A DNA stretch of 40,497 bases from Spirochaetota bacterium (GCA_011049595.1 DRHN01000450.1:1-40497), one strand, 5' to 3'; positions 20,096 to 40,496 are shown, numbered from the stretch's first letter. Notes: generated by a model not told the origin, from the sequence alone. Made by a program: numbers and translations.

Positions 20096-21058
20096 TTATT
20101 TTTCCACGCCAAAAACATCTTTCAGCGCTATTTCAACATCAGGAAAGGGAGATCTCAGAGCATATTCAACCGCCTTCTCAATCTCCTCATCGATTTCCTT
20201 TTTCATATCGTTGTGGGCATCTTTACTAAGTAACCCGTTTTCTTCAAGAGTTTTTGCAAACGCTTTTACCGGGTCCTTTTTACGCCACATTGCAATTTCT
20301 TCTTTAGATCTATAGGTTTGCGGATCACCCTCCCGGTGGCCGCGCAACCGGTACGTTGTTATTTCCAAAAGTGTTGCACCATTGCCTTTTCTTGCCCGGT
20401 CTACCGCTCTACAGCCGGCTTCATACACTGCAATGGGATCATAGCCATCGATTTTCTCACCGGCAATGCCAAAGGCCTTAGCACGTGCTGAAAGACCGGG
20501 TTTTGCAGTAGATATTTCAGTATGGGTTGAAATTGCATAGAGATTATCTTCAAGAATCAGCAAAATAGGAAGCTTCCATAATGATGCCATATTCATTGCT
20601 TCATACAGGCACCCCTGATTTGCAGCCCCGTCTCCGAAAAAATACGCAGACAGATCACCATTTTTTTGAAGTTTCTGAGCAAGAGCCGTGCCGACCACAG
20701 GGCCAAACCCGCCTCCTACAATCCCATCAGCGTAAACATTGACATCAGTAGCAATAACATGCATATGGCCACCCTTGCCATGATTGTACCCCCACTCTCT
20801 CCCAAAAACCTCCGCAAGTACTTTATCCATCCGAGCCCCTTTTGCAAGAAGATGCCCGTGTGCGCGGTGAGTGCTGAAAACAAAATCCGGATCCCGCAAG
20901 TGAATACACACCCCGGATGCGATTGGTTCCTGGCCGATATACAGGTGTATGTGCCCGGGAATAAATCCTTCCGCGTAGAGTTGGATACATTTCTGCTCAA
21001 ATCGTCTTATTCGAAACATCGATTTATATAATAAAATCTGTTTTTCAGGATCTATCAT
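20096..21058 (-). CDS. ThDP-dependent dehydrogenase E1 alpha subunit (AcoA/PdhA-like)
   Basis: IRRFE, HLYIGQE, STHRAHGH, GKGGHMH, GDGAANQG..EDN and TYRLRGH motifs. Confidence 0.92.
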   Translation of the reverse strand: MIDPEKQILLYKSMFRIRRFEQKCIQLYAEGFIPGHIHLYIGQEPIASGVCIHLRDPDFVFSTHRAHGHLLAKGARMDKVLAEVFGREWGYNHGKGGHMHVIATDVNVYADGIVGGGFGPVVGTALAQKLQKNGDLSAYFFGDGAANQGCLYEAMNMASLWKLPILLILEDNLYAISTHTEISTAKPGLSARAKAFGIAGEKIDGYDPIAVYEAGCRAVDRARKGNGATLLEITTYRLRGHREGDPQTYRSKEEIAMWRKKDPVKAFAKTLEENGLLSKDAHNDMKKEIDEEIEKAVEYALRSPFPDVEIALKDVFGVEK

Positions 21059-21134
21059 TGCAGAAAAATCCCCCTGATGGACACAGAAATACGTTTAATA
21101 TCAAAGTTATTATATAAATTATTAGTGAAATAAC

Positions 21135-21150
21135 TGCAAAATTAATGCCA
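21135..21150 (-). promoter_or_regulatory. Sigma-54 (-24/-12) promoter
   Basis: Minus strand TGGCA-TTAATT-TTGCA with canonical spacing, about 77 nt upstream of the E1 alpha start. Confidence 0.88.
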
Positions 21151-21445
21151 ATTTAATTTTATTTATTTCAAAGTGCTAATCCGAGCTTGACCGGCTGATC
21201 CACATTTTCAAATAATTCAAGATTTTTTTAAATGTTTAATTGACCAAATATAATGAGTTATAAAGAATTAATAAAATATTGTATTCTACGCCTGAATACA
21301 CATTGAAACTATTTTAGCAAACCTTTAATATACAATTAATAATACAGATACGTGTCCACGGGCCTGTCATTTTTTCGAAAAAGACAGCTTAATGGCCTGA
21401 AATAATACATTTCATATTAATCTTATAGAAACCTATCTTTTTCTA

Positions 21446-21480
21446 TGTTTCAAAATAAAAAGGTGTTTCAAAAAGAAACG
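21446..21480. promoter_or_regulatory. Tandem degenerate copies of the TGTTTCA-N3-TGAAACA enhancer
   Basis: TGTTTCAAAATAAAAAG (21446-21462) and TGTTTCAAAAAGAAACG (21464-21480). Confidence 0.6.
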
Positions 21481-21546
21481 GTTCACTATAATCATTATTT
21501 CAAATAAATATCACAAATGAATTTAGACATTTTAATTTAGTCACTT

Positions 21547-21574
21547 ATTATACCAATATTATAAAAACTGTCAA
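21547..21574 (-). promoter_or_regulatory. Consensus sigma-70 promoter facing left
   Basis: Minus strand TTGACA-N16-TATAAT with a TG extended -10 (TGGTATAAT). Confidence 0.65.
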
Positions 21575-21829
21575 GTAAATATTTTCATTTTATTTTCTTG
21601 TAAATGAAAATTTATATTGATATTTTTAACTCCATAAAATATATTAAAATTTATGTTCGTATTAATTGTTTTATATTAAGAATTTACTACTTTATTGTTA
21701 ATCTATTTTATATTTTTCATTTAAACATTTTCATAATATAATATGAAAAACGGAAATATATATTAATACCAGCGCAACTCTTTTTATCAAGCAGATTTAA
21801 TCGGTAATTAACAAAAAAACGATCACAAA

Positions 21830-23362
21830 ATGAAAAAAACTGACAACTTTTTGATGGGTGCTGATATAGGAAGCAGTTCTTGCAAAATTAGTATTGTTGA
21901 CGATACTGGCAGAATATTGGCTTATGGAAATACCGATTATTTTGCCGAAACAAAAAAAGAAGGGTGGGCTGAACAAAATCCCGATGTCTGGTTTCAGGCT
22001 TTCAAATCATCTGTTCGACAATGCCTGAAGGAAAGTAGAATACCACCCTCCAAAATTTACGCGCTGAGCGTTTGCGGCCCGGCTCATAATGCAGTTCTTC
22101 TTGATAAAAATAATGAAGTTCTCCGGCCGGCAATTTTGTGGTGGGATCAACGCAGCACGCATCAGAGTGACTGGCTGCTTAAAAAATTTGGAAGAACAAT
22201 ATTTAAAACAACACTTCAGCCTGTACATCCAAGCTGGACACTCGCTCAACTACTCTGGATAAAAGAAAATGAACCATACATATTTAAGAAAATTCATCGA
22301 ATAATCATCGGAAAAGACTTTATTACATACAGACTCACCGGGTCATGGCAGACTGATTGGTATGATGCTATGGGAACACAGCTGTTCAATGGAAAAGCAA
22401 AAAAATGGTCAAAAGAGATCTGCCGGATATTAAACCTTCCTGTTAAATGCCTTCCACCGGTCCTTAACTCATTGGACATCGCAGGACATGTAACCCCTTG
22501 CGCAAGCATTGAAACAGGACTCCCTGTTGGTCTGCCGGTAGCTGTTGGAAGCGGAGATTCTGTAGTTGAAGCCTTCGGAGTCGCTGCCGTTGAACCAATG
22601 GACTGCCTTGTAAAACTGGCAACAACAGGGACGGTCAGTGTGGTGACCGCAAAACAGCACCCAAGCAAAAAGGCCATGTCGTATTTTCATGTAATCCCTG
22701 ACCTTTTTTACACAATTACCGCAACCAACTCCGGGGCGTCATCAGCTCAGTGGTTCTATAAAACATTTCATGATAATGCAAAAGATTCTTATGAAACCAT
22801 GGAACAGCTAGCGGAAAAAGTTGCACCAGGTAGTGAGGGTTTAATATTTCATCCCTACCTGAAGGGAGAACGCTCTCCATACTGGGACCCGGACCTGCGG
22901 GCTGATTTTATAGGTATTTCTCATACTCATAAAAAACAACACTTCATAAGAGCGGTCTTTGAAGGGGTGGCATTTTCCCTGCGGGATTGTATGGAATTGA
23001 TCAGAAGCATGGATATTCCAATTAAAAGAACTTTTCTGGTTGGAGGCGGTGCCAGAATCAAACTGTGGCGTCAAATTACCTCTGACATTCTTGCAACAAG
23101 GCTGCATATTCCAAAAGTGCCTTCTCTTTATGTTGCGACCTACGGGGCGGCCCTTCTCGCGGGTTTGGCCTCTGGAGTTTTTTCGAGTTTAAAGGAAATC
23201 ACTAAAATTGCCGGAAAATCTGATGAAACAATCAAACCCGATCCAAATTATGCGGATCAGTATGAAAAAACATATACAGTTTATAAAGAAATTACCCGGA
23301 ATTTACAGCCGATCTATAAAAAACTGAAAAATATTTACTCCGGTCAGAAATCTATTAAATAG
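21830..23362 (+). CDS. FGGY-family carbohydrate kinase (xylulokinase-like)
   Basis: GADIGSSSCK, GWAEQNP, AILWWDQRS, GSGD, PYLKGERSP, RAVFEGVAF and GGGA motifs. Confidence 0.9.
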   Translation: MKKTDNFLMGADIGSSSCKISIVDDTGRILAYGNTDYFAETKKEGWAEQNPDVWFQAFKSSVRQCLKESRIPPSKIYALSVCGPAHNAVLLDKNNEVLRPAILWWDQRSTHQSDWLLKKFGRTIFKTTLQPVHPSWTLAQLLWIKENEPYIFKKIHRIIIGKDFITYRLTGSWQTDWYDAMGTQLFNGKAKKWSKEICRILNLPVKCLPPVLNSLDIAGHVTPCASIETGLPVGLPVAVGSGDSVVEAFGVAAVEPMDCLVKLATTGTVSVVTAKQHPSKKAMSYFHVIPDLFYTITATNSGASSAQWFYKTFHDNAKDSYETMEQLAEKVAPGSEGLIFHPYLKGERSPYWDPDLRADFIGISHTHKKQHFIRAVFEGVAFSLRDCMELIRSMDIPIKRTFLVGGGARIKLWRQITSDILATRLHIPKVPSLYVATYGAALLAGLASGVFSSLKEITKIAGKSDETIKPDPNYADQYEKTYTVYKEITRNLQPIYKKLKNIYSGQKSIK

Positions 23363-27079: not shown

Positions 27080-27739
27080 TTATTTAAAAATGTCCCCGGT
27101 TTCTTTGTACCAGAGCACAAAATCAAGATGGCTCAAAGGTATTTCCAGGCTTTCGGAAAACCCGGCCATTTTCTTCTCGATATTGAGATATTTTTTTCTT
27201 GACAGGCTTCCCGGGATTTCATCGATCACACAGCAGGCGTCCAGGTTCTTCAATATGTGTCTGTCCAGAATGGCGATATCGTCCCCGAAACCGATATTTC
27301 TCAAGAAATGGCCGGACTCTTTATAGCCGATACCTTTTACATTTGAGACAAACCATTCCCTTTTGTCGTACACGGAAGCATGTGCGCTGATTTTTTCTCT
27401 CAGGTTTATCCTCCCGCCCATTACAAACAGTTTTCTTGCCAGGTCTATGTATTTAGCTTTGTTGTTGCGGAAACGAACAATATTTAATTCGCCGGCGATC
27501 TGAGAAAGTGTGCCCTTAAAAAGGAGATTTTTCTGTAAAAGGTTTTTTACCGCCTTTTCGGCAGAGCGCGCCCGGGATGACGGTGTCAGAATACAAAAAA
27601 CCAGCTCCTGGAATATATCCTCATCACTGCCGTTTCTCCAAAGGGCGTTAAATTCTTCGAGCCTGTCTATGATCCGGGTTTTTATTTTTTTATATACGGC
27701 CATAATCTCTTCTATTGGAGTAAGATTTTTGCTATGCAT
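27080..27739 (-). CDS. ogg: 8-oxoguanine DNA glycosylase/AP lyase, OGG2 (archaeal-like) family
   Basis: ELVFCILT, RFRNNKAKYI, HhH VKGIGYKESGHFLRN, AILDRH, and C-terminal WY.ETG..FK ending in Lys. Confidence 0.9.
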   Translation of the reverse strand: MHSKNLTPIEEIMAVYKKIKTRIIDRLEEFNALWRNGSDEDIFQELVFCILTPSSRARSAEKAVKNLLQKNLLFKGTLSQIAGELNIVRFRNNKAKYIDLARKLFVMGGRINLREKISAHASVYDKREWFVSNVKGIGYKESGHFLRNIGFGDDIAILDRHILKNLDACCVIDEIPGSLSRKKYLNIEKKMAGFSESLEIPLSHLDFVLWYKETGDIFK

Positions 27740-27760
27740 AATGTTATTTACTACCCCGGG

Positions 27761-28324
27761 TCATTCTACATCAAATTCTAATATCACACGCTCGCCTGCC
27801 ACGAGTGAATACTTCCCCTTTTCCAGGCCATCTATAAGCACACTCGGTTCGGTAACATGCCCATGGGCCTCTATTTTTTTGCCGTCAAGGTAAAAGAAAA
27901 AACTCTTTCCCTCGGCACGCGTAATTTCGGCACAAAATTTACCGCCTTTGTCGCCAAAGATGTCAACATTCATTACATCGGTTTTCAGCCTGTATATGAT
28001 TTTTTCTTCATCCCCTATATGCCCTAAAGTGCCTTTCAGTTCCAGAGGGACAAACAAATCCGGACCGGTTAAGTTTTTAATGATCCGGATCCCATCCTTT
28101 AACAGTTTAAAAACCGCCCTCCTGTGCATCAATCTCTCAGGAACATCCATCAGCTTCATCGAGTTCATCAGAAAAAGATCCTTCTCGAGAGCAAGGAGGG
28201 CCCCGGCGCACTCTTTACAGGCCAATATGTGCTCTGAAAACCTCTTTTCAGCCTCGTTTTCAAGAGCCCTGTCATAGTACAGGGATATATAATCCGGATC
28301 ATTAAAACGGCATTTCTTCATCAT
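27761..28324 (-). CDS. Soluble zf-HC2 (ZAS-like) putative anti-sigma factor with C-terminal beta-rich domain
   Basis: C-x7-ISLYYD..L......F.EHILACKEC (HxxxCxxC); no hydrophobic TM segment; overlaps the upstream sigma-like gene. Confidence 0.7.
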   Translation of the reverse strand: MMKKCRFNDPDYISLYYDRALENEAEKRFSEHILACKECAGALLALEKDLFLMNSMKLMDVPERLMHRRAVFKLLKDGIRIIKNLTGPDLFVPLELKGTLGHIGDEEKIIYRLKTDVMNVDIFGDKGGKFCAEITRAEGKSFFFYLDGKKIEAHGHVTEPSVLIDGLEKGKYSLVAGERVILEFDVE

Positions 28325-29168
28325 AGCGCTCCTTTAAAAAGTTTTGAACAGCACTCTTCGTTCGCATGATCCCGGTCGAAACCGTTCCTATTGGAAATCC
28401 CAAGAATTGCGAAAGACTCTCATAGGAAGGAGTTAATTTCACTCTTTTATATTCATCTAACACTTTATTCCTTTTTTTCTTTAATTTTTCCACCTCTATC
28501 TTATTATTTTCTTCCTGACTTTTTAATATGCCATAATAGAGATCGTTCAATCTCTGGAACAGCTTATTTTTGAGCCTGTATTTTTCCAGCATTGTGTTCC
28601 TGATCACGCTGATCCCGTTAAGAGATTCACGAAAGGATTTATCAAGATAAATAGATATAAAACTGATATCTTCAGGTCTTATGGTCTCGATAAAATACAG
28701 GTGAAAAAATAATCTATGTTTTTCCTTTAAATCTATTATTATTTCATTAATAAGCCTGTCAAACTTTAAAAATTCCCCGTAGTTTTTACCGTCACCGATA
28801 AAATTGTGCAGGCTTTGATTACTTTCATAGCCGTAATCAAATGAAACCGCCCCGCCCTGCTCTTCGACCCTGTTTTTCAGCTTTTTCCCTCTGACAAAAT
28901 TGAGGTACCTGTTCCTCAGAACGACGGTAAACCATGTGATAAATTTAACATCTGTTTCCCTGTATCCATTTAGTATGGCTTTCATTCTGGTAAGAACATA
29001 CTCAAAAAAATCCCCGCAGGTATCCACGCTCATGCCGAAAGCTACACGGGGGTAATTATATATAAAGTTGGACAGCATTTCGATCAAAAGGGTATAGCTT
29101 TTTTCATCACCCTTTTTATACAGTTTTACAGCCTCTTTGATCCTGCTGTCAGGCGGTCGACTTTTCAT
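28302..29168 (-). CDS. Atypical sigma-70/ECF-like RNA polymerase sigma factor
   Basis: Region 2-like KFITWFTVVLRNRYLNFVR; region 4.1-like LKEKHRLFFHLYF; region 4.2 SYESLSQFLGFPIGTVSTGIMR. Confidence 0.75.
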   Translation of the reverse strand: MKSRPPDSRIKEAVKLYKKGDEKSYTLLIEMLSNFIYNYPRVAFGMSVDTCGDFFEYVLTRMKAILNGYRETDVKFITWFTVVLRNRYLNFVRGKKLKNRVEEQGGAVSFDYGYESNQSLHNFIGDGKNYGEFLKFDRLINEIIIDLKEKHRLFFHLYFIETIRPEDISFISIYLDKSFRESLNGISVIRNTMLEKYRLKNKLFQRLNDLYYGILKSQEENNKIEVEKLKKKRNKVLDEYKRVKLTPSYESLSQFLGFPIGTVSTGIMRTKSAVQNFLKERYDEEMPF

Positions 29169-30513
29169 ATATTAACCGGCTTTCTCCAAATAATGAAAAT
29201 GCGAGGGGTACAGGGTTTTTTCCTGTGTATGATTCACACATAGCCCTGTTGAACGCGTACCCGATCTCGCAATTATTTATCAGCAGCTCGTAGAAACAAA
29301 GAACAAAATCGGTGACGCCTCCATCCGTGATCTTCCATCTTGATGAAACAACATTTTTCACACCCGCTTTAAGAAAACTCGACGCAAGCTTCAAAGTATT
29401 TCCGCAGGAGCATGAAAAGACCAGATGAGGGCATCGCTTTGCGCCCGCAATATCCAGGGCAGTAAAATGAGACTCTCCGAGGTCCCAGGCGGGTGACGAG
29501 TCATCCGGACTGCTGTGTCCGGAAAAATGTACTATGTCGTACTGTGAAAACCAATCGACCAGCCTGTCCTTTAGCCGGTCCCTTGAATAAAAATCAACAG
29601 ATATCCCCATTGCTGAAAAAAAATCATACAGCTTCAGCCCCTCATCATAAGCACCGCTGAAACTGCCTGAAGGGTCAGCAATGATAAGAACTCTTTTGAC
29701 CCTCGCAGTTTCGTGTCTTTTTCCTTCATCCCCTCGAAAAGCAAGAAAATTATTTTCAAAAATAAAAGCCCCGTCATAGGAAATTTCGAAAGGTATATCA
29801 TTTACCCTTGCATCCCCCGCTATGTATATACTGAATCCGCCTCTTGTAAACACTTTTTCAAGCCCTGTACCCCTGAATACGGCATCATAAACCAATCGGC
29901 CGATATCCTTCAGCGATTCTGTGTAATTTTCCATGTTCGAGGTCTGTAACAGGTTTTCCCCTATTTTCATTTTTCGCTCCAGCACAGACCGGAAATTTGC
30001 GGTCAACTTGAAGGTAAAATCTGAAAATTGGGTCCCCCTGTTGATCTCGATCACAGTTGCCCTGCCATCGTCACCTGAAAATGATATGTTTATGATCAGG
30101 GGGATTTTCTCGTTATTTACTTTATTGAGCTCTTCAAAAAATATGCTCTCATCTTTTTTCTTTAAAAAAAATGTATCCTCGCCCTTCTTAAATCCGGCAA
30201 AACGGAAAGGCAAACCCTTTTCAAAGACCTGTGAACAGTCCACCCGGGTACTTATGTAGTGATAATGGCTGCCGGTTTTCCCATATCCATTAAACGGCCC
30301 GGATTTCGGATTTTTCTCTTCATTCACGTCTTCCGAGCTTTTGATAAAAGGCCCGGCTATTTTCATGTTTTCAAAATCATAAAGAAATACAATGTCCCCT
30401 TTTCTCAGCTGGTAGATATTAAAACGTTCAATCAGGCTGCGCGGGATGCGGATCAAACCTGTCTTGAGGGTTTTAACAAGGTTGTTCTCATCAGTGTGTA
30501 TCAGATAGGCCAT
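29149..30513 (-). CDS. CHAT (caspase-like peptidase) domain protein with N-terminal DCD/EVE-like domain
   Basis: CHAT motifs IPFE, VLIIADP, DIVHFSGH, LVFSCSC, LASSFLKAGV..VVSSRW.I.D, FY..L and F.LFG. N-terminal QLRKGDIVFLYDFENMKIAGPF resembles DCD/EVE. Confidence 0.8.
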   Translation of the reverse strand: MAYLIHTDENNLVKTLKTGLIRIPRSLIERFNIYQLRKGDIVFLYDFENMKIAGPFIKSSEDVNEEKNPKSGPFNGYGKTGSHYHYISTRVDCSQVFEKGLPFRFAGFKKGEDTFFLKKKDESIFFEELNKVNNEKIPLIINISFSGDDGRATVIEINRGTQFSDFTFKLTANFRSVLERKMKIGENLLQTSNMENYTESLKDIGRLVYDAVFRGTGLEKVFTRGGFSIYIAGDARVNDIPFEISYDGAFIFENNFLAFRGDEGKRHETARVKRVLIIADPSGSFSGAYDEGLKLYDFFSAMGISVDFYSRDRLKDRLVDWFSQYDIVHFSGHSSPDDSSPAWDLGESHFTALDIAGAKRCPHLVFSCSCGNTLKLASSFLKAGVKNVVSSRWKITDGGVTDFVLCFYELLINNCEIGYAFNRAMCESYTGKNPVPLAFSLFGESRLIYEKSTA

Positions 30514-30527
30514 GGTTCCGTCAAAAT

Positions 30528-31157
30528 CTAAATTCCCCGTAAGTATAAGGGTTTTAAATACTTTTTTTCAGGCTTCAACCCGCAGGTTTCAGCAAGCCGG
30601 TACGCGTTTCGCGCGCTTGGATAGGCAAATACCGTTTTTATTTTAATATCAGTGTCATCCCGGATCATAATGCTCCTGTGATCTTTTTCCGATGATATAA
30701 GACATTCGGGGGCATTCTCTTTAATAAATGAAAAAAAATCTTCCCTGTTCAATGCAAGATAATCAGTTACGCTTTCCCCTTCTCTGTAGCAGGCAGTATA
30801 GACTTCCTGTCTTCCGGATCTTATGAACGGGATGGCCGAATTATAACATTTTCTTATTGCAAATGCAAGAAGGTCAAGTGAAGGTATACCGAGTATCGGA
30901 ATCCCCCGGACCTGACACATTGTGTTTGCAAAAGACAGACCTATACGTATTCCTGTAAAAGACCCCGGACCCATTCCGGCGTATATTTGTGTTATATCAC
31001 TTACCGGCCTGTTAATACTTTTCAACAAAAAATCAACAGCGTTGACTATATTCTGGGAGTGAGTTACATCATGCAGAAGTTCCAGACTGGCAATTTCGGC
31101 ATCCTGGAATATGGAAACGGAAAATGCTTTTGTGGAAGTTTCAATAGAAAGAATCAA
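30528..31157 (-). CDS. tsaB: tRNA t6A biosynthesis protein TsaB
   Basis: ILSIETS, HS, GMGPGSFTGIRIG and C-terminal PLYLR motifs. TTG start overlaps the tsaE stop. Confidence 0.93.
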   Translation of the reverse strand: MILSIETSTKAFSVSIFQDAEIASLELLHDVTHSQNIVNAVDFLLKSINRPVSDITQIYAGMGPGSFTGIRIGLSFANTMCQVRGIPILGIPSLDLLAFAIRKCYNSAIPFIRSGRQEVYTACYREGESVTDYLALNREDFFSFIKENAPECLISSEKDHRSIMIRDDTDIKIKTVFAYPSARNAYRLAETCGLKPEKKYLKPLYLRGI

Positions 31158-31567
31158 AATTCTTTCCTTTCAATCGAAATAGACCTGCATTCCTCATGGA
31201 TTCTGAATGAAATAATGATAAACCTGTTCAGTTTTTCTGCCATTTTCTCACCCCATTCTATGACCGTTACTCCCTCTTCGCTGTATAGATAATCCTCGAG
31301 AAGATCGTCCATCTCGGATATATTTTCGATCCTGTAAAAATCAAAGTGATAAAGATCCAGGCTGCCCTTATATATGTTCATAATTGAAAAAGAGGGGCTT
31401 GTCACATTTTCCCCGATATCGAGCGATCCGGCGATCCCCTTCGTAAACACGGTTTTCCCGCATCCCAGACCGCCGGTGAGCAGTACAACTTCTCCGCCTT
31501 TTAAAGTCTTTCCGAGATCCGATCCGTAATTGATCGTATCCATAAATGATTTTGATATATATTCCAT
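31154..31567 (-). CDS. tsaE: tRNA t6A biosynthesis ATPase TsaE
   Basis: GGLGCGKT, VTSPSF, HFDFYR and IEWGE motifs. Confidence 0.95.
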   Translation of the reverse strand: MEYISKSFMDTINYGSDLGKTLKGGEVVLLTGGLGCGKTVFTKGIAGSLDIGENVTSPSFSIMNIYKGSLDLYHFDFYRIENISEMDDLLEDYLYSEEGVTVIEWGEKMAEKLNRFIIISFRIHEECRSISIERKEF

Positions 31568-39941: not shown

Positions 39942-40496
39942 TTATTTTTCGGAATCCTTTTTTTCACCAGTTTCCTTTGAGTCAGCTGCATTTTCTTCGG
40001 CTGCCGGCTCTTCTGCTCTTTCCTCAGCCTCCGGCGCCGCTTTTTCTTCGGCTGCCGGCTCTTCTGCTCTTTCCTCAGCCTCCGGCGCCGCTTTTTCCTC
40101 GGCTGCCGGCTCTTCTGCGCTTTCCTCAGCCTCCGGCGCCGCTTTTTCCTCGGCTGCCGGCTCTTCGGAAGAAGGTGCTGTTTCTTTTTTTTGTTCACGT
40201 TCCTTCACATCAATTTGATCCGGTATTTCATCTTCTGCTGCGGCCCTGTCAGGCTCATCCGCAGGTACGGTTTTTTTCGCGCCTCCGTCAACCATTATTT
40301 CATCGGATAGATCCTCCTCTTCCGATAAATACCCCTCCTCCTCTATCGCGTCAGCCTTCGCTTCTTCCTCCTCGAGAGAAATAATTTTTGTTTCCTCGGC
40401 AATCTCTAATTTACCTGCTTCATTTTGTCCTTCGATTACTGCAGAAGAAACTATAGAAGCGAAAAGGTTTATCGCCCTGATAGCATCATCATTACC
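39942..40496 (-). CDS. rpsB: 30S ribosomal protein S2 (3' part; 5' end outside window) with long acidic tail
   Basis: The frame from 40496 reads GNDDAIRAINLFASIVSSAVIEG and stays open to the stop at 39942; canonical position upstream of tsf. Confidence 0.93.
   Translation of the reverse strand, partial: GNDDAIRAINLFASIVSSAVIEGQNEAGKLEIAEETKIISLEEEEAKADAIEEEGYLSEEEDLSDEIMVDGGAKKTVPADEPDRAAAEDEIPDQIDVKEREQKKETAPSSEEPAAEEKAAPEAEESAEEPAAEEKAAPEAEERAEEPAAEEKAAPEAEERAEEPAAEENAADSKETGEKKDSEK
39991..40166. repeat. Coding tandem repeat, 51-bp unit x ~3.5, in the rpsB tail
   Basis: Units start at 39991, 40042, 40093 and 40144; they encode EEPAAEEKAAPEAEE(S/R)A. Confidence 0.92.

Follow-up and report, generated by a model that had tools for sequence, protein, structure and literature searches.

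Three overlapping genes of a Spirochaetota bacterium encode a CHAT-family protein, a sigma factor related to the extracytoplasmic function (ECF) type and a soluble zinc-binding anti-sigma, and we propose, with a probability of roughly 0.55, that they form a cytoplasmic protease-gated sigma switch. They lie on the minus strand of a contig of 40,497 nucleotides (GCA_011049595.1, DRHN01000450.1), the whole of which is referred to here as the window. In the proposed switch a zinc anti-sigma of the RsiW/DdvA type would hold the ECF-like sigma inactive, and its C-terminal beta domain would dock by strand pairing on a CHAT protease of the separase/Csx29 type with a predicted His333/Cys370 dyad. The DCD/EVE domain at the N terminus of the protease, where present, is the likely sensor that would turn the protease on upon a signal. 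The active protease would then most likely cut the docked anti-sigma and free the sigma, an insertion within the sigma itself being the less likely target. The output probably includes the oxidative and base-damage sanitation genes that lie downstream, namely Ogg here and rubrerythrin, NUDIX or Tag in relatives, and the module as a whole probably serves oxidative or base-damage repair.

An earlier note on this stretch had described three overlapping genes for a CHAT protein with His and Cys motifs, a DCD/EVE-like input domain and no recognizable tetratricopeptide repeat (TPR) region, for a sigma-70/ECF-like factor and for an HxxxCxxC protein devoid of a transmembrane (TM) segment, in a neighborhood free of CRISPR arrays. 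This anatomy is borne out by the searches and models set out below. What the note had missed is the vertical inheritance of the module, its non-defense context and the repair genes downstream of it. The CHAT and sigma genes overlap by 20 nucleotides (29149-29168) and the sigma and anti-sigma genes by 23 (28302-28324); the coordinates of all features are collected in Table 1.

The CHAT Protein Is Predicted to Be a Separase-like Protease

The product of the first gene matches Pfam CHAT (PF12770) over residues 204-433 with 47.4 bits against a cut-off of 24, and no TPR family matches it at E values up to 1. Its model, built with 25 homologues, has a mean predicted local distance difference test score (pLDDT) of 87.7 and a predicted template modeling score (pTM) of 0.87. 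A Foldseek search with this model, a check suggested by the earlier note for each of the proteins, recovers a fold of the separase/Csx29 type: Csx29, a TPR-CHAT protein, ranks first (E = 2.6e-11), followed by separases, SAVED-CHAT and DdvA. In VIA-align, the source of the Z values given for the structures compared with the CHAT model, the separase protease domain (5fc2_B) aligns with residues 136-454 (Z 26.1, root mean square deviation (r.m.s.d.) 3.4, 299 residues aligned), Csx29 (7y9x_B) with residues 136-447 (Z 23.4, r.m.s.d. 3.1, 282 aligned) and DdvA (8rot, 8rw5) with residues 136-443 (Z 18.9, r.m.s.d. 3.2, 258-260 aligned), whereas the alignments of SAVED-CHAT and MALT1 begin only at residues 268-269. 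Because of these different starting points we infer a boundary within the modeled domain, such that residues 136-265 would form a pseudo-caspase subdomain and residues 266-454 the active caspase-like subdomain, in the manner of separase.

The two motifs expected of such a protease are HFSGH at residues 329-333 (nucleotides 29515-29529) and FSCSC at residues 366-370. Among solved structures the best sequence match of the CHAT protein is the SAVED-CHAT protein 8tl0 (E = 0.0044), and the profile alignment to this chain places His333 on chain residue 355 and Cys370 on chain residue 402. The catalytic dyad of the protein in 8tl0 is reported as H375/C422; the offset is thus 20 for both residues, which assigns the catalytic role to the second His of HFSGH. 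The idea that the His and Cys fall on a caspase dyad therefore stands as far as alignment to 8tl0 goes, the assignment having been made by sequence and not by superposition of coordinates, and it is supported by the conservation of the two residues, as Cys370 is present in all 39 family members and His333 in 37 of them. The His and Cys at the catalytic positions are also retained in six distant CHAT sequences from other spirochaete families, among which the first His of HFSGH is variable.

The N-terminal Domain Resembles Readers of Modified Bases

Residues 1-135 of the CHAT protein, folded alone with 18 sequences, give a model with a pLDDT of 90.5, which was compared with 48161 representative chains. 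The top match is PH1033 (1wmm; Z 13.9, r.m.s.d. 2.1, 117 residues aligned), and the others include the Mmi1 YTH domain (Z 11.9), 2ar1 and VcaM4I (Z 11.1 each), YTHDC2 (Z 10.7), YTHDC1 (Z 10.3), an ASCH domain (Z 10.2), THYN1 bound to 5-methylcytosine DNA (Z 9.9) and the N-terminal domain of McrB (Z 9.0). Just 16 of the 48161 chains reach a Z of at least 8 and, judged for most by entry title, these are EVE, YTH, ASCH or McrB-N domains; PH1033, 2ar1, 2gbs and VcaM4I also belong to this PUA-like group.

Pfam EVE (PF01878) and DCD (PF10539) gave no direct match in the window CHAT protein at E values up to 1, and a protein atlas yielded no usable match for its N-terminal domain. A profile of the N-terminal domain (A4), run against 1.84 billion representatives, retrieved 49 proteins, mostly CHAT fusions of about 450 residues, and all ten of the non-fusion matches that were scanned carry Pfam DCD and/or EVE, most of them above the cut-off. 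The DCD/EVE match coincides with the N-terminal stretch aligned by the profile in eight of the ten and is internal in P0191 and P0202, that in P0202 being weak and below both cut-offs. Since the fold matches and the profile links to Pfam DCD/EVE proteins point the same way, the label is supported, and by fold and transitive homology residues 1-135 are a divergent DCD/EVE (PUA-like) domain.

Four proteins of about 310 residues (P0181, P0182, P0184 and P0195) that are among the nearest relatives of this domain outside the CHAT fusions join DCD/EVE to a NucS_C endonuclease domain. By analogy, this arrangement recalls modification-dependent restriction enzymes.

An Atypical Sigma Factor Is Encoded beside a Soluble Zinc Anti-sigma

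The sigma factor matches TIGR02937 (sigma70-ECF) with 47.8 bits against a cut-off of 42.9, and Pfam Sigma70_r2 alone falls under its cut-off (14 versus 24). The best match of a profile built from 19 orthologues (mean column identity 59%) is SigW (5wuq_A, E = 1.3e-5), and the alignment is split, with profile positions 9-165 on SigW 4-153 and positions 253-281 on SigW 157-185. Sigma-2 and both halves of sigma-4 are thus aligned to SigW, and the split indicates that about 84 residues are inserted inside sigma-4, an insertion that is conserved across the phylum. With the model of the CRISPR-associated sigma factors of type III-E (NF041236) the protein scores 17.8 bits, far short of the cut-off of 100, and it does not belong to that family. 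In the reclassification of ECF sigma factors two groups are confined to Spirochaetes, both in other gene contexts, and the word CHAT does not occur in the main text, although lists may sit in the supplements (PMC7826278).

The anti-sigma matches zf-HC2 (PF13490) with 22.8 bits against a cut-off of 22.2, and its profile matches RsiW (5wuq_C, E = 1.2e-4), an RslA-type anti-sigma (3hug_B, E = 5e-4) and the N terminus of DdvA (8rlz_A, E = 0.006). The putative zinc ligands C5, H32, C36 and C39 are invariant in all 18 orthologues. Among these 18 proteins the highest mean Kyte-Doolittle hydropathy over 19 residues is 1.34, so that no TM helix is predicted, and on sequence criteria the protein is a soluble anti-sigma of the RsiW/DdvA-like Cys-His-Cys-Cys type. 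Residues ~65-187 constitute a further domain with no family match, and for this C-terminal domain the protein atlas offered no more than leads (other zf-HC2 clusters and spirochaete hypothetical proteins). An Arg-Gly pair found near residue 100 in most orthologues was considered as a cleavage site and is a weak lead, as the window anti-sigma has Leu-Gly there.

The Anti-sigma Is Predicted to Dock on the CHAT Protein

Prediction of a complex between the CHAT protein and the anti-sigma, a check proposed with the original idea, gave an interaction prediction score from aligned errors (ipSAE) of 0.80 in each of three runs, compared with 0.47, 0.00 and 0.00 for the controls. The mark applied to ipSAE is reached by 58 of 80 solved complexes and by 2 of 110 mismatched pairs, and is a rough guide here since our own alignments were supplied. 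The runs share at least 95% of their contacts, and the partner pLDDT is at least 74. In the predicted interface a strand of the CHAT protein (residues 304-310) pairs with anti-sigma residues 150-157, away from the dyad. The model supports binding of the two proteins without proving it, and we read the predicted contact as a docking site, or exosite.

The Module Is Vertically Inherited across the Order

The CHAT protein is matched in 15 of the 16 other genomes of the family, the miss being a 60%-complete genome of the same genus, and in all three genomes from the other families of the order. In the 18 related loci of the order tsaB, the CHAT gene and the sigma gene are adjacent without exception; the anti-sigma gene follows in 17, and in the 18th the contig ends first. 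With these counts the association of the trio is not a matter of chance. An overlap between the aligned CHAT and sigma coding regions is seen in 16 of 19 loci, among which the window is counted. The module is present in single copy, and none of its three proteins matches a defense family in PADLOC. The three genes are thus conserved together, as the original proposal demanded, and they recur in other spirochaete families, as described below.

Downstream, the Ogg gene is found in 14 of the 16 relatives for which 1.1 kb or more of flanking sequence is available; neither L038 nor the short L042 yielded one. In nine relatives a gene of the rubrerythrin family (PF02915, E = 2e-15; for example L013:5856-6353) lies between the anti-sigma and Ogg genes. 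The window has just a 21-nucleotide spacer (27740-27760) at this place and one relative has two short remnants (L045:3002-3161), from which it appears that the rubrerythrin gene was lost more than once. The module, at a fixed site between tsaE-tsaB and ogg across the order, is vertically inherited. Together with the single copy, the absence of a PADLOC match and the nature of the downstream genes, this argues for a role in stress or repair rather than in phage defense.

Related Loci in Other Spirochaete Families and in Leptospira

With the sigma profile, 126 of 201 Spirochaetota genomes give a match at an E value of 1e-10 or better, mostly in open frames of about 250-360 residues. Most of these matches take in sigma-2 and the beginning of sigma-4, if not more, and those that carry a name are Brachyspira "sigma-70 family" proteins. 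We examined 24 sigma loci outside the order with hidden Markov models from our own alignments; a search with the single CHAT protein had overlooked some of these genomes. An anti-sigma relative lies directly downstream of the sigma gene in 15 of the 24 loci. In five (f7 twice, f9, f28 and f37) a CHAT relative lies directly upstream, in the gene order of the trio, and in two, of the Leptospira type, it lies downstream after a middle gene; at one further locus the upstream protein has a sub-threshold match to Pfam CHAT (E = 5e-4).

Upstream of the trio the genes vary by lineage, being tsaE-tsaB, an ornithine carbamoyltransferase gene, unassigned genes or an M23 peptidase gene, and it is the trio that is the constant unit. 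Downstream, a NUDIX hydrolase gene follows the anti-sigma gene in four loci of other families (L054:1821-2402, L060:4010-4558, L058:2118-2660 and L061:5088-5618). Genes for NusG_II and Hpre_diP_synt_I come after the NUDIX gene in L060 and directly after the anti-sigma gene in L052. A locus of the Brachyspira type (L037:2791-5229) consists of a DciA-family gene, a sigma homologue, a 166-residue anti-sigma relative without the zinc motif and a Tag-type 3-methyladenine DNA glycosylase gene, with no adjacent CHAT gene.

The Leptospiraceae have a rearranged form, in which the genes encode a sigma of 330 residues, a cysteine-free "hypothetical protein" of 242 residues and a CHAT protein of 609 residues (L033:3298-7026, also L035), the last with a C-terminal extension of about 290 residues of unknown family. 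This CHAT protein is matched in 40 of the 41 Leptospiraceae genomes searched, as a core gene would be, and in all 15 comparable genomes a distance of about 1.2 kb separates the sigma match from the CHAT match on the same strand. The sole stretch of the anti-sigma that is even weakly similar to the middle protein is residues 141-166, the same stretch that is predicted to contact CHAT; with an hhalign probability of only 10.7% over 41 columns, homology of the two proteins is not established.

Two further observations concern individual CHAT genes. In one Leptospira genome, one of the 15 just mentioned, the CHAT gene beside sigma is split and contains stop codons (G093:C35:38931-40753). In another spirochaete family a protein of 443 residues (L020:3045-4376) has about 25% identity to the whole CHAT protein, and its 7.4-kb locus holds no sigma or anti-sigma match; the neighbors, judged by eye alone, look like a heptosyltransferase, an ATPase-like protein and FliS.

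The Proposed Switch and Its Alternatives

What the analysis shows is the anatomy of the module, the folds of its proteins, the conservation of the dyad, the linkage of the genes across spirochaetes and a predicted docking; that the anti-sigma is cut, what signal is read and which genes respond are matters of inference. Several observations weigh against this interpretation. The predicted contact is distant from the active site and so speaks for docking at most, not for cutting. In neither domain do its residues stand out by their conservation (out of 10000 random sets, 3522 and 5296 were as conserved), and conservation thus adds nothing to the case for docking. Upstream of the CHAT gene, dyads of a 5-mer and a 4-mer separated by 14-19 nucleotides were enumerated in 12 intergenic regions; the best occurs in three of the 12, which is no better than in shuffled sequences, so that no autoregulated ECF-type promoter was found there. 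Outside the order 17 of the 24 sigma loci have no adjacent CHAT gene, which means that the sigma/anti-sigma pair can work without CHAT nearby, and HxxxCxxC is kept in nine of the 15 anti-sigma relatives and lost in six. The sensor is not universal either: two genomes of one genus are devoid of the DCD/EVE domain, their CHAT protein of 348 residues starting at about residue 131, and NPxxGPFNG, the most conserved loop of the domain, is missing from a third genome and from three metagenomic proteins. Arg or Lys replaces the catalytic His in two of the 39 family members, both metagenomic. Finally, the repair genes downstream may be mere co-transcribed neighbors.

The main rival, unlikely in our estimate, has the sigma governed by the zinc anti-sigma alone, which would act as a thiol- or redox-dependent switch comparable to RsrA/ChrR. 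CHAT would then not gate the sigma but have an accessory task, for example in clearing oxidized anti-sigma or resetting the system. The Cys-His-Cys-Cys ligands, invariant in 18 of 18 orthologues, would suit such a switch, as would a weak RsrA-family match of the anti-sigma, the rubrerythrin and Ogg genes downstream, the 17 sigma loci that have no CHAT gene beside them and the dispensability of the sensor domain in one genus. It leaves unexplained why CHAT is adjacent throughout the order, why it is so again at five loci from four further families and, in rearranged form, in the Leptospiraceae, why the genes overlap, and why docking of CHAT to the anti-sigma is predicted; the loss of the zinc motif in six of 15 relatives elsewhere also tells against it. 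Most zinc anti-sigmas, moreover, are not redox sensors. A different substrate is envisaged if the protease acts on the sigma, removing or cutting the ~84-residue insertion in sigma-4 (pro-sigma processing or inactivation), and the C-terminal domain of the anti-sigma serves as an adaptor through which the sigma reaches the protease. A docking site modeled away from the active site would fit an adaptor, the insertion is conserved phylum-wide, and the SAVED-CHAT cascade of type III-B is reported to include the cleavage of a sigma factor by a caspase-like protease; yet insertion-bearing spirochaete sigmas exist without an adjacent CHAT gene, and we regard cutting of the sigma as improbable.

We give very little credence to a role in phage defense or abortive infection, as in Craspase or CalpL/T/S, with DCD/EVE as a sensor of nucleic acid modified by phages. 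Control of sigma factors by CHAT or Lon proteases is reported at type III CRISPR loci, and the nearest relatives of the N-terminal domain outside the family include the DCD/EVE-NucS_C fusions, but the three proteins have no PADLOC match, the module is single-copy and occupies a constant site between tsaE-tsaB and ogg across the order, its G+C content is like that of its surroundings, the window has no CRISPR array, and all but one of 41 Leptospiraceae genomes have CHAT. No more probable is that CHAT is a non-catalytic scaffold or partner-switching factor which binds the anti-sigma in competition with the sigma. The exosite-like position of the predicted contact and the two members without the catalytic His are compatible with a scaffold; retention of the His in 37 and the Cys in all of the 39 members, and of both in the six distant CHAT sequences, would be unexpected for a pure scaffold.

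The protease-gated sigma switch is thus the reading that we prefer, and it can be extended, as a doubtful but attractive conjecture, to a LexA-independent base-damage response of spirochaetes. The DCD/EVE domain would read a damaged or modified DNA or RNA base, for example an oxidized purine, the fused CHAT protease would cut the docked anti-sigma, and the released sigma would induce Ogg, NUDIX, Tag or rubrerythrin genes, with a rearranged circuit and another sensor operating in Leptospira.

Features of the Locus and of the Window

Table 1. Coordinates of the module, its parts and its neighbors. Positions are those of the window unless a locus handle is given.
Feature	Position	Strand	Basis or remark
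tsaE	31154-31567	-	Pfam TsaE; upstream of CHAT gene
tsaB	30528-31157	-	Pfam TsaD-family; ends 14 nucleotides before CHAT gene
CHAT protein gene, 454 residues	29149-30513	-	Open reading frame and Pfam CHAT
DCD/EVE-type PUA-like domain, CHAT residues 1-135	30109-30513	-	Fold and profile matches
Pseudo-caspase subdomain (putative), CHAT residues ~136-265	29719-30108	-	Boundary from structural alignments
Predicted anti-sigma contact, CHAT residues 273-317 (strand 304-310)	29563-29697	-	Complex model
Codon of predicted catalytic His333	29515-29517	-	Profile alignment to 8tl0
Codon of predicted catalytic Cys370	29404-29406	-	Profile alignment to 8tl0; Cys of FSCSC
ECF-like sigma factor gene, 288 residues	28302-29168	-	Open reading frame and TIGR02937
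Insertion of ~84 residues within sigma-4, residues ~164-247	28428-28679	-	SigW profile alignment; between 4.1-type helix and 4.2 helix-turn-helix
Soluble zinc-binding anti-sigma gene, 187 residues	27761-28324	-	Open reading frame and zf-HC2
Zinc motif H32-x3-C36-x2-C39	28208-28231	-	Fourth ligand Cys5 at 28310-28312
Predicted CHAT contact, anti-sigma residues 141-166 (C-terminal beta domain)	27827-27904	-	Complex model
Ogg-type 8-oxoguanine DNA glycosylase/lyase gene	27080-27739	-	PF22175, 188.6 bits; NF002305, 223.7 bits (cut-off 183)
CHAT proteins of one genus without the DCD/EVE domain or without its loop	L015:1566-2609, L016:2996-4039, L009:1501-1905

The Ogg gene starts 21 nucleotides downstream of the anti-sigma gene, all flanking genes are on the strand of the trio, and the G+C content of the trio region is similar to that of the remainder of the window. 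A functional link to the synthesis of threonylcarbamoyladenosine (t6A), suggested by the tsaE-tsaB pair upstream and by the association of EVE with TsaD in alpha-proteobacteria, was set aside as probable synteny because the other trio-bearing families have ornithine carbamoyltransferase, unassigned or M23 peptidase genes at this position. No CRISPR-like array was found in the 40.5-kb window, cas genes elsewhere in the genome not having been searched for, and an Rfam search of the window gave no match. The source assembly consists of 521 contigs and is 89% complete, and the public runs that contain the source DNA carry the label marine sediment metagenome.

Two other features of the window lie at a distance from the module. 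An intergenic region of about 770 nucleotides (21059-21829) separates divergent genes; the G+C content of the 21001-22000 bin is very low at 0.257, and the region has no Rfam match. Within the open frame at the end of the window is a tandem repeat of 51 nucleotides (39991-40166; 3.5 copies, 98% match).

Comparison with Known Systems

The logic of the proposed switch is known from Craspase, DdvA and CalpL; what differs is the sensor, the division of functions between separate soluble proteins, the atypical sigma and the housekeeping, phylum-wide setting. In the type III-E Craspase system (Csx29/Csx30/CASP-sigma), cleavage of the inhibitor Csx30 is proposed to relieve the sigma. Csx29 likewise has a CHAT fold made of pseudo-caspase and caspase subdomains (Z 23.4 to the model) and is encoded beside an ECF-like sigma and its inhibitor. 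The spirochaete module differs in that TPR and, within the window, a CRISPR array are absent, a DCD/EVE sensor takes the place of the RNA-guided effector, a zinc anti-sigma of the classical type stands in for Csx30 as inhibitor, and the genes are vertically inherited among housekeeping genes.

SigW/RsiW, RsrA/SigR and RslA/SigL share the zinc ligand pattern of the spirochaete anti-sigma, and 5wuq is the best solved-structure match for both the sigma and the anti-sigma. RsiW sits in the membrane, and regulated intramembrane proteolysis disposes of it. The spirochaete anti-sigma is by contrast soluble and has a C-terminal beta domain, its sigma carries the ~84-residue insertion in sigma-4, and the partner protease is of the CHAT family. 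The CalpL/CalpT/CalpS and type III-B SAVED-CHAT/PCaspase/PCc-sigma systems are described as having a sensor-fused protease that cuts an anti-sigma-like protein or a sigma in the cytoplasm. These systems are reported to sense cyclic oligoadenylates through SAVED and to reside in defense loci, and CalpL is of the Lon type, whereas no SAVED domain or cyclase was seen here.

DdvA of Myxococcus xanthus, which acts with the ECF sigma DdvS, is reported to combine a Cys-His-Cys-Cys zinc anti-sigma with a CHAT domain (PMC11506125), and it shares both the zinc domain (E = 0.006) and the CHAT fold (Z 18.9) with the spirochaete module. As described, DdvA is one TM polypeptide with a periplasmic TPR-CHAT portion that controls a defense island; in the spirochaetes the anti-sigma and the protease are separate, soluble and devoid of TPR, and the protease has a DCD/EVE domain. 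HetF of Anabaena is described as a CHAT-family protease that degrades the small regulator PatU3 (PMC9457339). The likeness to the spirochaete module would lie in the action of a CHAT protease on a specific small regulator, the roles of HetF being in cell division and heterocyst development. Between the spirochaete sigma or anti-sigma and HetZ or PatU3 no similarity was seen, no search having been aimed at it.

The readers of the EVE/DCD type have the same fold as the N-terminal domain, and in alpha-proteobacteria EVE is reported to be located in the TsaD operon (PMC7641849), which is reminiscent of the position of the spirochaete domain next to tsaE/tsaB within the order. The window protein nevertheless has no direct Pfam EVE or DCD match, and the tsaE-tsaB adjacency fails in the other spirochaete families. 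Neither "CHAT" nor "Spirochaet" occurs in the main text of that survey, although its supplements may list such genes, and a literature search on PH1033 gave nothing relevant. In searches of the literature on CHAT with ECF or anti-sigma factors, Spirochaetes or Leptospira, we met only the defense-linked DdvA, Craspase and SAVED-CHAT systems and one Leptospira transcriptome paper, with no description of the module.

The rearranged form, present in 40 of 41 Leptospiraceae genomes and made up of three as yet uncharacterized proteins, renders the proposal testable in culturable saprophytic Leptospira, and the module offers a lead on the possible regulation of oxidative and base-damage repair in anaerobic spirochaetes. 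So far, the release of sigma factors by CHAT or Lon proteases has been known from defense islands, as with Craspase, CalpL and DdvA. In the spirochaete module this logic would be put to use across a phylum in a signaling device of the housekeeping type, inherited vertically, in which the protease is paired with a different class of sensor, a modified-base reader, and with a sigma factor that bears a large insertion in sigma-4.

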